From the sequence record FJ539134.1: a stretch of DNA of 4,273 bases; one strand, 5' to 3'. Source of the DNA: Qubevirus faecium. Made by a program: the position numbers and the translations under genes. Of this stretch, positions 1 to 4,208 are shown piece by piece (within the stretch, counting starts at the first letter, position 1; every line of letters begins with the position of its first letter). The notes beneath the pieces were generated by a model, which saw only the letters and a list, made by a program, of their open reading frames with translations, did no database searches and had not been told where the DNA came from.

Positions 1-51
1 GGGGTAGGCCCCGTAAGGGGCCTGCCTTCACCGCACTACAGAGGAGAATCT
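1..51 (+). other. 5' UTR with terminal hairpin (stem 3-12 / 17-26, GUAA tetraloop 13-16); genome starts GGGG
   Basis: Direct pairing check: 12c-17g, 11c-18g, 10c-19g, 9c-20g, 8g-21c, 7g-22c, 6a-23t, 5u-24g (wobble), 4g-25c, 3g-26c. A 5'-terminal GGG(G) plus stable hairpin is typical of leviviruses. Confidence 0.7.
41..46 (+). promoter_or_regulatory. Shine-Dalgarno (GAGGAG) for the maturation protein gene
   Basis: GAGGAG lies 5 nt upstream of the ATG at 52-54. Confidence 0.7.
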
Positions 52-1404
52 ATGCCAACCCTTCCGAGAGGTCTTCGCTTCGGATCGAATGGCGAGGTCT
101 TAAATGACTTCGAGGCGCTCTGGTTTCCAGAGCGCCATACCGTCGATCTGAGCAATGGGACCTGCAAGCTCACTGGTTATATCACTAACCTGCCTGGCTA
201 CAGTAATATATTCCCGAATAAGGGAGTCACTGTTGCTCGTACGCCGTACAGAAGTACAGTGCCTGTTAACCATCTTGGTTACCGGCCCGTTACGACTGTT
301 GAGTACATTCCCGACGGCACCTACGTGCGCCTAGATGGGCACGTAAAGTTCGAAGGGGGCTTGGTTAATGGGTCAGTTGATCTCACGAATTACGTGATCT
401 CGTTAGCTGCTCAGGGTGGCTTCGATTACCAATCGGTAATCGGACCTAGGTTCTCTGCGCACTTCTCCGCGTTCAGCACCAAATATGGTGTCTTACTCGG
501 GGAAGGGAGAGAGACTCTTAAGTATCTTCTCCTGCTGCTTCGCAGAATGCGTGAAGGGTACCGCGCCGTAAGGCGTGGCGATCTCAAGCGCCTCAGGAAT
601 GTGATCTCTACGTTCGAGCCGACATCCTCTAAAGGGAGGAAGGCAAGATCTGAGTTCTCACAAACCTATCGCGACAAGCTTACCGGTAACAAGGTTGAAG
701 TTAAACCAAGTGAGGGTAAGTGGAATAGCAGTAGTGCGAGTGACCTGTGGTTAGAGTTCCGTTATGGGCTTATGCCGTTGTTCTACGACATTCAGTCCGT
801 GATGGAAGACTTCATGCGTGTCCATAAGAAGATCGCGAAAATACAGCGATTTTCTGCAGGGCACGGTAAGCTGGAGACGGTTAGTTCGCGGTTTTACCCG
901 GACGTCCACTTCGCTCTTGAGGTCACCGCAGTGTTACAGCGGCGTCATCGTTGGGGTGTCATATACCAGGATACTGGTTCTTATGCCACTTTTAACAATG
1001 GTCGTCTAGTCCCGGTGAAGGACTGGAAGACAGCGGCGTTTGCACTCCTTAATCCTGCCGAAGTTGCATGGGAGGTAACTCCTTACAGCTTCGTTGTGGA
1101 TTGGTTTGTAAATGTTGGGGATATGCTTGAGCAGATGGGCCAGCTTTATAGGCACGTCGATGTCGTTGACGGTTTCGACCGGAAGGACATAAAACTCAAG
1201 TCCGTATCCGTACGCGTCTTGACTGGCGACAGTGCGCACGTAGCTAAGTTTACTCTACGTCAAGCACGTTTGTTGCATAGTTATTATTCGCGCGTGCATA
1301 CCGTTGCGTTTCCGCAAATTTCACCACAACTCGATACTGAGATACGTAGCGTTAAGCACGTGATCGATAGTATCGCATTATTAACCCAGCGCGTTAAGCG
1401 CTGA
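52..1404 (+). CDS. A2: Maturation protein A2 (pilus attachment; in Qbeta-like phages also the lysis protein that inhibits MurA)
   Basis: 450-aa ORF, ATG start with upstream SD, TGA stop at 1402-1404. N-terminus MPTLPRGLRFG and many blocks (LWLEFRYGLMPLFYDI, TPYSFVVDWF, LLTQRVKR at the C-terminus) match my recollection of Qbeta A2. First gene in the genome, as expected. Confidence 0.93.
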   Translation: MPTLPRGLRFGSNGEVLNDFEALWFPERHTVDLSNGTCKLTGYITNLPGYSNIFPNKGVTVARTPYRSTVPVNHLGYRPVTTVEYIPDGTYVRLDGHVKFEGGLVNGSVDLTNYVISLAAQGGFDYQSVIGPRFSAHFSAFSTKYGVLLGEGRETLKYLLLLLRRMREGYRAVRRGDLKRLRNVISTFEPTSSKGRKARSEFSQTYRDKLTGNKVEVKPSEGKWNSSSASDLWLEFRYGLMPLFYDIQSVMEDFMRVHKKIAKIQRFSAGHGKLETVSSRFYPDVHFALEVTAVLQRRHRWGVIYQDTGSYATFNNGRLVPVKDWKTAAFALLNPAEVAWEVTPYSFVVDWFVNVGDMLEQMGQLYRHVDVVDGFDRKDIKLKSVSVRVLTGDSAHVAKFTLRQARLLHSYYSRVHTVAFPQISPQLDTEIRSVKHVIDSIALLTQRVKR

Positions 1405-1423: not shown

Positions 1424-1822
1424 ATGGCAAAATTAAATCAGGTAACTCTTTCCAAAATCGGAAAGAATGGGGATCAGACTTTAACTCTTACACCGCGCGG
1501 GGTAAACCCGACGAACGGCGTGGCGTCGCTGTCTGAAGCTGGAGCTGTTCCGGCTTTGGAAAAGCGCGTGACTGTGTCAGTTGCGCAGCCTTCCCGTAAC
1601 CGTAAGAACTTTAAAGTTCAGATTAAACTCCAAAACCCGACTGCATGCACGAAGGACGCATGTGACCCATCTGTGACGCGATCTGCTTTCGCAGACGTAA
1701 CGCTGTCGTTCACGTCGTATTCTACCGACGAAGAACGTGCGCTAATTCGCACTGAGTTGGCAGCTCTGTTGCAGGACAATCTGATCATCGATGCAATCGA
1801 TAATCTGAATCCTGCTTACTGA
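1424..1822 (+). CDS. cp: Major coat protein
   Basis: ATG at 1424 gives MAKLNQVTL...NPAY, 132 codons plus UGA stop. Near-identical in blocks to Qbeta coat as I recall it (PRGVNPTNGVASLS, PALEKRVTVSV, QPSRNRKN, QNPTAC...CDPSVTR, STDEERA, RTELAALL, IDAI, LNPAY), including the two Cys residues. The track's 1418 start is a TTG two codons upstream; ATG 1424 is preferred. Confidence 0.95.
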   Translation: MAKLNQVTLSKIGKNGDQTLTLTPRGVNPTNGVASLSEAGAVPALEKRVTVSVAQPSRNRKNFKVQIKLQNPTACTKDACDPSVTRSAFADVTLSFTSYSTDEERALIRTELAALLQDNLIIDAIDNLNPAY

Positions 1823-2419
1823 GCAGCGTTACTGGTAGCCTCGTCCGGCGGTGGGGATAACCCCTCAATGCCAGACGTTCCGGATCTTCCAGACGTCAAA
1901 CCGCCTGACGGAACGGGGCGCTATACGTGCCCCTTCTCCTGTTACCGCCTCGGTAGTATCTACGAGGAGGGTAAGGACGGTTCTCCTGACATCTACGAAA
2001 GGGGAGACGAAGTCTCGGTTACTTTCGATTATGCTCTCGAGGATTTTCTTGGGAACACAAATTGGCGTAACTGGGATCAGCGATTGTCATCATATGACTT
2101 AGCTAATCGTCGTCGTTGCCGTGGCAACGGGTACATTGACTTAGATGCCACTGTGATGCAGTCAGACGAATTCGTTCTGTCTGGCCGTTATCCAGTGCGC
2201 AAGGTCAAGTTTCCCGGCGCTTTCGGCTCCATCAAGTATCTCTTGAACATTCAAGGCGATGCCTGGTTGGACTTATCCGAGGTGACAGCCTACCGTTCCT
2301 ACGGAATGGTTATTGGTTTCTGGACAGACTCTAAGAGCCCGCAGCTACCAACCGATTTCACGCAGTTTAACAGTGCTAATTGCCCTGTACAGACGGTGAT
2401 AATCATACCCTCACTTTAA
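1424..2419 (+). CDS. A1: A1 read-through protein (coat extended by UGA suppression; minor capsid protein)
   Basis: Coat frame continues past UGA to TAA at 2417-2419, 331 residues in all. The extension begins with a Gly-rich linker (SSGGGDNPS), then a Pro-rich segment and blocks matching Qbeta A1 from memory (GTGRYTCPF, LGNTNWR.WD.RLS, CRGNGYIDLDAT, PGAFG, VIGFW, FT.F....CP.Q.VI). Confidence 0.88.
1820..1822 (+). promoter_or_regulatory. Leaky UGA stop codon of the coat gene (programmed read-through site)
   Basis: UGA at 1820-1822 in context UAC-UGA-GCA. The same frame stays open through 1823-1867 (gca gcg tta ctg gta gcc tcg tcc ggc ggt ggg gat aac ccc tca) into the 1868-2419 ORF. Confidence 0.85.
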
Positions 2420-2428
2420 GCAACTTAA

Positions 2429-2433
2429 AGGAG
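2429..2433 (+). promoter_or_regulatory. Shine-Dalgarno (AGGAG) for the replicase gene
   Basis: AAAGGAGA at 2427-2434; AGGAG ends 5 nt before the ATG at 2439. Confidence 0.75.
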
Positions 2434-2434
2434 A

Positions 2435-2454
2435 TAGCATGTCAAAGACAGCTA
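2435..2454 (+). promoter_or_regulatory. Replicase translational operator hairpin (coat-protein binding site): stem UAGC/GCUA + UGUC/GACA, bulged A, AAA loop; contains the replicase AUG
   Basis: Seen directly: 2435-2438 uagc pairs with 2451-2454 gcua; 2439 a is unpaired (bulge, first base of the AUG); 2440-2443 uguc pairs with 2447-2450 gaca; loop 2444-2446 aaa. Same architecture as the Qbeta operator (8-bp stem, bulged A, 3-nt loop) as I recall it. Confidence 0.8.
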
Positions 2455-4169
2455 GTCGCAGAAGAGAAATTACTCAGCTATTGGGTAAGGTCGACATCAA
2501 CTTCGAAGACGACATCCACATGTCTATTGCCAACGACCTCTTTGAGGCCTACGGCATCCCGAAACTTCAGAATGCTGAGGAGTGCATTAACACCGCATTC
2601 CCAAGCCTTGATCAAGGCGCAGACACATTTCGTGTCGAGTATTTGCGCGCTGAGATCTTATCGAAGTTCGACGGGCACCCTCTAGGTACTGATACCGAAA
2701 AGACAGCATGGGAGAAATTCCTGGCTGCTGAAGAGGGTTGTAGACTTACGAACGAACGACTGTCGCAGGTTAAGTACCACGATAATTCCATTTTGTCGTG
2801 GGGCGAGCGTGTAATTCATACTGCTCGCCGAAAAATACTTAAACTAATTGGCGAGTCTGTGCCGTTCGGGGATGTGGCGTTGCGCTGCCGATTTTCTGGC
2901 GGTGCAACGACCTCGGTAAACCGTTTACACGGTCATCCGTCGTGGAAGCATGCCTGTCCGCAGGATGTTACCAAACGCGCATTCAAGTACCTGCAAGCCT
3001 TTAAACGGGCGTGCGGTGACGTTGTAGATTTACGCGTCAACGAGGTGCGCACTTCAAATAAAGCAGTCACTGTTCCGAAGAATAGTAAGACTGATCGCTG
3101 TATCGCCATCGAACCCGGTTGGAATATGTTTTTCCAGCTCGGTGTAGGTGCGGTGCTACGCGATAGGTTGCGTTTATGGAAGATTGACCTTAATGATCAG
3201 TCGACCAACCAACGCCTCGCGCGGGATGGGTCTCTGCTAAATCATTTAGCTACCATAGACTTATCCGCAGCCAGTGATTCGATCAGCTTAAAGCTAGTTG
3301 AATTGCTGCTCCCTCCTGAATGGTATGACCTTCTGACAGATCTCCGATCTGATGAAGGCGTTTTACCTGATGGACGAGTTGTGACCTATGAGAAAATATC
3401 CTCCATGGGAAATGGCTACACTTTCGAGCTTGAGTCGCTTATTTTCGCGGCGCTCGCAAGAAGTGTGTGTGAGTTACTAGAAATCGACCAATCTACTGTT
3501 AGCGTGTACGGGGATGATATAATCATCGACACTCGTGCCGCAGCTCCATTAATGGATGTCTTTGAATACGTTGGGTTCACGCCTAACAAAAAGAAGACGT
3601 TCTGCGATGGACCCTTCCGCGAATCGTGCGGTAAGCACTGGTTCCAAGGGGTAGATGTAACGCCCTTTTACATACGCCGACCAATTCGTTGCCTTGCTGA
3701 TATGATACTGGTTTTAAACAGTATCTACAGGTGGGGCACTGTTGATGGTGTATGGGATCCTAGAGCACTGACCGTGTACGAAAAGTATCTCAAGTTGCTG
3801 CCAAGAAATTGGCGACGCAACCGGATACCAGACGGCTACGGAGACGGAGCTCTCGTCGGATTGGCTACGACGAACCCGTTCGTTATAGTTAAGAATTATT
3901 CAAGACTATACCCGGTATTAGTTGAAGTCCAGAGGGACGTCAAGCGTAGCGAGGTAGGCAGTTATCTATATGCCTTACTCCGCGATCGCGAGACACGTTA
4001 TAGTCCTTTCCTGCGTGACGCAGATAGGACTGGGTTTGATGAAGCGCCGCTAGCTACTAGCCTTCGTCGCAAGACAGGTCGGTACAAAGTGGCGTGGATT
4101 CAGGACAGTGCCTTCATCCGGCCCCCGTATTTCATTACGGGCATTCCCGAGGTGAAGCTTGCAAGCTAG
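2439..4169 (+). CDS. rep: RNA-dependent RNA polymerase (replicase beta subunit)
   Basis: 576-aa ORF, ATG with SD, TAG stop at 4167-4169. YGDD catalytic motif at 3507-3518 (VSVYGDDIIID). Long blocks match Qbeta replicase from memory (CRFSGGATT, NKAVTVPKNSKTDRCIAIEPGWNMFFQLG, LATIDLSAASDSISL, VTYEKISSMGNGYTFELESLIFA, FRESCGKH, GVDVTPFYIR, IPDGYGDGALVG). Confidence 0.96.
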   Translation: MSKTASRRREITQLLGKVDINFEDDIHMSIANDLFEAYGIPKLQNAEECINTAFPSLDQGADTFRVEYLRAEILSKFDGHPLGTDTEKTAWEKFLAAEEGCRLTNERLSQVKYHDNSILSWGERVIHTARRKILKLIGESVPFGDVALRCRFSGGATTSVNRLHGHPSWKHACPQDVTKRAFKYLQAFKRACGDVVDLRVNEVRTSNKAVTVPKNSKTDRCIAIEPGWNMFFQLGVGAVLRDRLRLWKIDLNDQSTNQRLARDGSLLNHLATIDLSAASDSISLKLVELLLPPEWYDLLTDLRSDEGVLPDGRVVTYEKISSMGNGYTFELESLIFAALARSVCELLEIDQSTVSVYGDDIIIDTRAAAPLMDVFEYVGFTPNKKKTFCDGPFRESCGKHWFQGVDVTPFYIRRPIRCLADMILVLNSIYRWGTVDGVWDPRALTVYEKYLKLLPRNWRRNRIPDGYGDGALVGLATTNPFVIVKNYSRLYPVLVEVQRDVKRSEVGSYLYALLRDRETRYSPFLRDADRTGFDEAPLATSLRRKTGRYKVAWIQDSAFIRPPYFITGIPEVKLAS

Positions 4170-4180
4170 ACACTAGCTTG
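4162..4180 (+). other. 3' UTR hairpin (perfect 8-bp stem, 3-nt loop) whose 5' arm contains the replicase UAG stop
   Basis: caagcuag (4162-4169) pairs perfectly with cuagcuug (4173-4180); loop aca at 4170-4172. Confidence 0.6.
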
Positions 4181-4189
4181 TGATGGGAA

Positions 4190-4208
4190 GGGCGGTCTTT
4201 GACCGCCC
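4190..4208 (+). other. 3' UTR GC-rich hairpin (perfect 8-bp stem, UUU loop)
   Basis: gggcgguc (4190-4197) pairs perfectly with gaccgccc (4201-4208); loop uuu at 4198-4200. Confidence 0.6.

Follow-up and report, generated by a model that had tools for sequence, protein, structure and literature searches.

The stretch analysed here in its full length (sequence record FJ539134.1, 4273 nucleotides (nt), hereafter the window) comprises the complete genome of a plus-strand RNA phage, with GGGG at its 5' end and CCA at its 3' end. This report concerns the means by which such a phage lyses its host, very likely the maturation protein A2, and its putative target, the peptidoglycan-precursor enzyme MurA. 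By megablast the window belongs to Qubevirus faecium, the genogroup IV alloleviviruses. BR8 (FJ539135) is 95.1% identical to it over 100% of the length, followed by SP (about 92%), HB-P22 (83.5%), NL95 and HB-P24 (both about 81%) and FI (79%), while Qβ gave patchy similarity only, at about 72%. The genes follow one another in the Allolevivirus/Qubevirus order of maturation, coat, read-through A1 and replicase on a single plus strand (Table 1), and the read-through extension is annotated in the same way in BR8 and SP. Deposited records of the relatives list A2, coat, A1 and replicase and nothing more; in those of NL95 and FI the A protein is labelled 'involved in particle maturation and bacterial lysis'. 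Overall, the genome represents strain-level variation within a known species with the standard allolevivirus layout, and nothing in it is new in kind.

Table 1. Positions of genes and other features in the window (ORF, open reading frame; aa, amino acids; KD19, maximum Kyte-Doolittle hydrophobicity over 19 residues).
Feature	Position	Strand	Details
Shine-Dalgarno sequence of A2	41-46	+	GAGGAG, 5 nt upstream of the ATG
A2 maturation protein gene	52-1404	+	450 aa; Pfam Phage_mat-A 6.9e-86; PHROG 4286 2.6e-143
A2 residues 30-118, equivalent of Qβ 30-120	139-405	+	Reported main MurA-contact β-region; β-strands predicted
Genogroup IV-specific insertion in A2	616-711	+	Residues 189-220, 32 aa, 8 K/R against 4 D/E
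ORF embedded in A2, most likely non-functional	818-1009	+	+1 frame, 63 aa, GTG start, KD19 1.83
Coat gene with leaky UGA end	1424-1822	+	Pfam Levi_coat 1.4e-57; TGA at 1820-1822
Read-through extension, giving minor capsid protein A1	1823-2419	+	In frame; Pfam Read-through domain 7.1e-50
Open +1-frame stretch over the replicase start	2380-2685	+	101 codons, TTG start, net charge +7, KD19 0.63
Replicase β-subunit gene	2439-4169	+	Pfam RNA_replicase_B 2.5e-256

The A2 protein and its insertion

The initial annotation had placed A2 at 52-1404 and described it as longer than its Qβ counterpart. Both statements hold, with 450 aa against 420 in Qβ, a difference of 30. Over its full length, A2 is homologous to Qβ A2, a type I single-gene lysis protein that inhibits MurA (chains 5VLZ/5VM7/5MNT, E=1e-118); the alignment falls into two blocks, residues 1-188 with Qβ 1-190 and residues 221-450 with Qβ 192-420, and 207 of 415 residues (50%) are identical. 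Closer counterparts are found within the species: the maturation proteins of SP, BR8, HB-P22, HB-P24, NL95 and FI, encoded in identical gene order and carrying an insertion at the same site, are 96% (BR8), 95% (SP) or 74-80% (the remaining four) identical to that of the window. The protein is under purifying selection, with a ratio of nonsynonymous to synonymous substitution rates (dN/dS) of 0.20-0.25. An AlphaFold2 model built from 61 sequences (predicted local distance difference test (pLDDT) 80.4, predicted template modelling score (pTM) 0.72) has β-strands in residues 1-118 and helices in residues 127-256. As in Qβ, an N-terminal β-region is thus modelled together with an α-helical region, and the top Foldseek match of the model is the Qβ A2 crystal structure itself (5MNT, E=1e-33, probability 1.00).

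The extra length of A2 is accounted for by the genogroup IV-specific insertion, a basic segment which the model places in the α-helical region as a helix (residues 193-211) and a loop, at a pLDDT of about 65. Qβ, M11 and three A2 types from metagenomes (P0008, P0011 and P0012) lack this insertion. In NL95, FI and the HB strains it measures 22-23 aa; the SP-like clade has 9-10 residues more. In Qβ A2, MurA is bound by the exposed β-region, and the α-region sits on the RNA within the capsid (PMC12856241); to judge from its modelled position, the insertion should therefore not by itself affect MurA binding. An independent insertion of about 26 residues is present at the same site in the metagenomic A2 type P0013 (L012, a contig of SRR18186867), whose A2 is 36% identical to that of the window; this suggests that the site is a permissive loop in the α-region.

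Probable lysis by A2 and its likely target

Candidates for a separate lysis gene were sought with a hydrophobicity scan covering plus-strand ORFs of at least 25 codons with an ATG, GTG or TTG start and retaining those with a KD19 of at least 1.6. Minus-strand ORFs were ignored, as no strand but the plus strand is known to be translated in plus-strand RNA phages of this kind. Applied to MS2 as a positive control, the scan returned one ORF, the true lysis gene L, which encodes a type II single-gene lysis protein (KD19 1.74); applied to Qβ as a specificity control, it returned seven ORFs despite A2 being the proven lysis protein of that phage. The criterion is sensitive, not specific. At the coat end and the A1/replicase junction of the window, no ORF of at least 25 aa reached a KD19 of 1.6 (1.37 for 1851-2102, 0.47 for 2313-2399 and 0.63 for 2380-2685). 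The junction, the only place considered in the initial annotation when it reported no small membrane-protein ORF, is indeed free of one by a scan that recovers MS2 L. Over the whole genome, a single ORF embedded in A2 (818-1009) passes the threshold. No ORF comparable to an MS2 L-type lysis protein lies at the coat/replicase junction and no PF11125 match was obtained; the small ORFs had no Pfam or PHROG match at E<=1, a search in which MS2 L itself is assigned to PF11125 at 1.5e-40. Neither the scan nor the comparison of relatives found an embedded ORF conserved by position across genogroup IV.

This gene content is consistent with a phage that has no dedicated lysis gene and whose maturation protein would do two jobs. 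One copy of A2 per virion would bind the genomic RNA and the F-pilus. Late in infection A2 would build up, free or on assembled particles, and its exposed N-terminal β-region would bind a cytoplasmic peptidoglycan-precursor enzyme, most likely MurA in its closed form bound to uridine diphosphate N-acetylglucosamine (UDP-GlcNAc). Cell-wall synthesis would then halt and the growing cell would burst. By homology, A2 is very likely the lysis protein. Provided that it is, the analogy with Qβ makes MurA its likely target, and we regard the explanation as a whole, dual function together with lysis most likely via MurA, as probable on balance.

Lysis by A2 is already known among alloleviviruses and standard for this group. 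SP, like Qβ, is described as being without a lysis gene (PMC12856241), and lysis by the maturation protein is regarded as a genus trait (PMC3561173), such general statements resting on Qβ experiments. The window shares with Qβ the place of A2 as the first gene, the host, the F-pilus receptor and the lack of a separate lysis gene. In the work of Nishihara 2002 (J Gen Virol 83:2601), induction of the cloned SP maturation gene reportedly gave lysis with ballooning of the cell surface; if this is right, lysis upon expression of an SP-type A2 is already covered, and the phenotype fits a block in cell-wall synthesis.

The MurA step is where the proposal of the initial annotation, lysis by A2 via MurA, is less secure. 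The four annotated products, the lack of a conserved extra ORF and the full-length homology to Qβ A2 speak for its first part. Its own caution, that with a divergent and longer A2 the role of MurA was worth confirming, proved well placed. According to Cui et al. 2017, as summarised in PMC12856241, most MurA contacts of Qβ A2 fall within residues 30-120, and residues 1-180 form the smallest lytic fragment. Several results on the corresponding region, and on the interaction in general, weigh against a simple transfer of the MurA step from Qβ. The contact segment is identical to Qβ at 26 of 88 residues (30%), compared with 50% over the whole protein, and is the least conserved of the regions compared; residues 1-180 are 46% identical. 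By blocks, identity to Qβ is 21% at residues 21-40, 32% at 41-60 and as low as 5% at 101-120, and the same three blocks are the most variable within genogroup IV (46-55%). The fold match offers little help at this level, as the template modelling score to 5MNT is only 0.43-0.46, with the relative domain placement unreliable and nothing reliable on the binding surface. In the literature searched, MurA inhibition is shown only for Qβ and no genogroup IV A2 was tested against MurA. Further, a preprint released in 2023 by the Young and Bernhardt laboratories suggested that the strong affinity of A2 for MurA in modern Qβ stems from recent mutations; with such affinity possibly being recent in laboratory Qβ, the A2-MurA interaction may be evolutionarily labile. 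Counting against the explanation as a whole, the ORF 818-1009, with hydrophobicity similar to that of MS2 L, lies inside A2 and would be co-expressed from any A2 clone.

The identity of the contact region to NL95, FI and HB-P22 is 54-67%, and dN/dS is raised but remains below 1 in residues 26-62 (0.32-0.66) and in residues 91-125. Inside the region lies a central motif, TP(H/Y)RxTVP...G(Y/L)RPVTTV (Qβ residues ~64-88), flanked by hypervariable hairpins. This motif is kept in the A2 types nearest to Qβ and genogroup IV; among metagenomic A2 types, those most distant retain it in part.

The alternative that fares best against MurA inhibition is that genogroup IV A2 is lytic through a host target other than MurA. 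This might be a different step in supplying lipid II, or else MurA by a surface or in a conformation other than that bound by Qβ A2, which the alleles conferring resistance to Qβ would leave unaffected. The low identity of the contact region to Qβ, its hypervariability within the group and the elevated dN/dS in residues 26-62 are what one would point to in its favour, together with the suggested recent origin of the Qβ affinity and the published finding that single-gene lysis proteins converge on several targets (MurA, MraY and MurJ). However, host and pilus are the same as for Qβ, the homology extends over the full length of A2, and the β-region keeps its central motif. Nothing in the data indicates a different target, and variation of the surface hairpins is also expected from pilus binding or from neutral drift. 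We consider this alternative unlikely. The same holds for the wider proposition that genogroup IV A2 either has a target or binding mode different from that of Qβ A2 on MurA or is aided by the lineage-specific ORF 818-1009, which we would call improbable; if true, a single phage genus would hold two independent solutions to lysis.

For annotation the impact of either outcome is small, the species being known and the layout a textbook one. The scientific question is whether MurA inhibition, for which Qβ alone has been structurally characterised, goes back to the ancestor of the whole A2 family or belongs to the Qβ lineage. No part of A2 diverges faster than the contact region. An SP-type A2 would show how the surface of a 'protein antibiotic' is retained or replaced in a domain that must also go on binding the F-pilus. 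With respect to the initial annotation, the present analysis adds the low conservation of the MurA-contact region, the assignment of the extra length to an insertion in the α-region, at a distance from the β-region, and two alternative-frame ORFs, 818-1009 and 2380-2685, that need controls.

Alternative-frame ORFs

ORF 818-1009 is the only non-core ORF of the window with a KD19 of at least 1.6. Its N-terminal half is strongly basic and its C-terminus hydrophobic; in these traits, in its size (63 aa against 75) and in its +1 frame it is similar to MS2 L; unlike MS2 L, it is located inside A2 rather than in the coat/replicase overlap, does not match PF11125 and is not conserved. It could in principle encode a small MS2 L-like membrane protein that causes or aids lysis in the SP-like lineage. 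As the sole ORF above threshold, it scores higher than L, which is likewise the only ORF returned from MS2 (1.83 vs 1.74), and in published screens lysis genes were shown to originate de novo and to vary among close relatives, some of them working without a Shine-Dalgarno sequence. A large published screen, on the other hand, found no genome with two functional lysis genes, and Qβ has its seven hydrophobic ORFs although A2 is the proven lysis protein there.

Gene-wide comparison with chance placed the ORF within expectation. Of 2000 synonymous-codon shuffles of A2, 36% had a longest alternative ORF of at least 63 aa (P=0.36), 28% had at least one hydrophobic ORF, and 7% had a hydrophobic ORF as long as 818-1009 (P=0.07). 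A site-specific shuffle returned a probability of 0.10 for an open frame and of 0.01 for a frame both open and hydrophobic, values that apply to a site picked after the fact. Conservation of the frame was judged over 12 genogroup IV sequences, five of them metagenomic contigs. The frame is open in 8/12 (SP-like 4/4, HB-P22-like 2/2, FI-like 2/3) and interrupted by stops in 4/12 (NL95-like 3/3, plus FI), and several genomes have GCG or GTA in place of the GTG start. In BR8 an ATG farther upstream, where the window has ACG, extends the corresponding ORF to 785-1009 and 74 aa, which can be counted in its favour.

The remaining evidence speaks against a function. Local divergence at 818-1009 equals the genome average, and the N-terminal half of the peptide varies freely. 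The C-terminal half lies over reduced synonymous diversity of an ordinary degree (scan-window rank 69/367), with stronger synonymous constraint at 1276-1353, 412-561 and 67-144. No convincing Shine-Dalgarno sequence precedes the GTG, and no PHROG or Pfam family was matched. ORF 818-1009 is in our estimation a chance ORF, most likely non-functional, and a part for it in lysis is very improbable. It does nevertheless affect how A2 would be assayed. Any A2 clone also carries ORFs 155-334 and 818-1009, and lysis from such a clone alone would therefore be no proof of A2. The substitution C834A is silent in A2 (Ile261, ATC>ATA) and stops ORF 818-1009 at codon 6 (TCG>TAG).

Other small ORFs were rejected as candidates. 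ORF 155-334 (59 aa, ATG start, inside A2) has its hydrophobic segment destroyed in BR8 and contains stops in HB-P22, HB-P24, NL95 and FI. ORF 1851-2102 (83 aa, directly after the coat stop) falls below the threshold, and its hydrophobic patch is lost in BR8 and SP, with stops in HB-P22, HB-P24 and NL95. ORF 3970-4053 is too short or too weakly hydrophobic and its start is lost in some strains; even in close relatives the hydrophobic patch is lost or stops are gained. ORF 485-571 has neither the length nor the hydrophobicity needed to span a membrane. This last ORF (28 codons, +1 frame, MVSYSGKGERLLSIFSCCFAECVKGTAP) retains its ATG in all genogroup IV genomes and in Qβ, is open in most genogroup IV strains, and lies in the part of A2 that ranks second in synonymous constraint.

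The open stretch at 2380-2685 was set aside in the initial annotation as hydrophilic, which it is. Hydrophilicity is, however, no ground for dismissal, since Qβ has a cryptic lysis gene in the +1 frame whose 67-aa product is lytic (Nishihara et al. 2004, Genes Cells 9:877, as cited in PMC12856241) and equally non-hydrophobic (KD19 0.66 vs 0.63). That product, rebuilt here from the Qβ sequence, consists of 24 replicase residues followed by 43 residues of the +1 frame after GAGGUUG. As PMC12856241 presents it, the Qβ product comes into frame by a 1-nt deletion, and otherwise mutation or a hypothetical frameshift is needed. The +1 stretch at the replicase start, in the window and in sequences L002-L007, matches MS2 L and the Qβ cryptic gene in both position and frame. 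All alloleviviruses compared have an open, basic, arginine/serine-rich +1 stretch of 43-144 codons over the replicase start, with neither its boundaries nor its start codon conserved.

On these grounds 2380-2685 would be a positional analogue of the Qβ cryptic lysis gene, similar in being an open basic stretch over the first replicase codons and different in peptide sequence and in extent, with 82 codons after the replicase ATG against 67 in Qβ. The peptide gave no BLASTP alignment with the 43-aa +1 segment of Qβ at E<=100. Its TTG start, not preceded by a Shine-Dalgarno sequence, is CTG in BR8, HB-P24 and NL95, and the stop positions vary. In 2000 synonymous-codon shuffles per gene the stretch was within chance, and no function is known for such a stretch in any wild-type phage. 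Synonymous variation is suppressed at 2302-2571, which would suit a hidden gene; this suppression coincides with the replicase start, a site of regulatory RNA structure (the operator). A contribution to lysis by a basic peptide translated from within 2380-2685, through rare frameshifting or initiation at TTG, is therefore highly improbable, despite the frame and position shared with the lytic Qβ product, the net charge and the at least 43 open basic codons kept in every allolevivirus examined, as the Qβ counterpart is itself cryptic; we assign any role of the stretch in lysis a very low probability.

Synonymous constraint, RNA structure and distant relatives

A scan of synonymous rates for hidden genes among genogroup IV genomes returned suppressed zones at 412-561, 1276-1581, 2302-2571 and 3922-4191, the strongest at 412-561, at the 3' end and at the starts of the coat and replicase genes. 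Conserved RNA structure is the probable cause of these zones; likely elements are the S site bound by replicase together with the ribosome-binding site of the coat gene, the operator where the replicase gene begins, and the 3' domain. The coat-protein operator is an established regulatory RNA structure at the replicase start of these phages. At the 5' end of the window a stable terminal hairpin is predicted at 1-27 (GGGGUAGGCCCC...GGGGCCUGCC), and in the local fold a part of the A2 Shine-Dalgarno sequence is paired with 118-122 (z = -2.4 for nt 1-130). Translation of A2 is known to be limited by structure in Qβ, and the 5' fold of the window is reminiscent of that.

Beyond the cultured species, the metagenomic contigs L011, L012 and L019, with A2 proteins 36-51% identical to that of the window, keep the layout of maturation, coat, (read-through) and replicase. 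No extra coding-strand gene was called on these three contigs; one ORF was called on the minus strand of L019. Since distant contigs keep the same layout without an additional coding-strand gene, the maturation protein probably already had both uses in the ancestor of this clade. The contigs L011 (ERZ781412, 4065 nt), L012 (3291 nt) and L019/L020 (A2 type P0008, 51%) appear to be allolevivirus-like genomes outside the two cultured species and retain the read-through domain of the coat. They, as far as their sequences indicate, could represent additional Qubevirus-like species.

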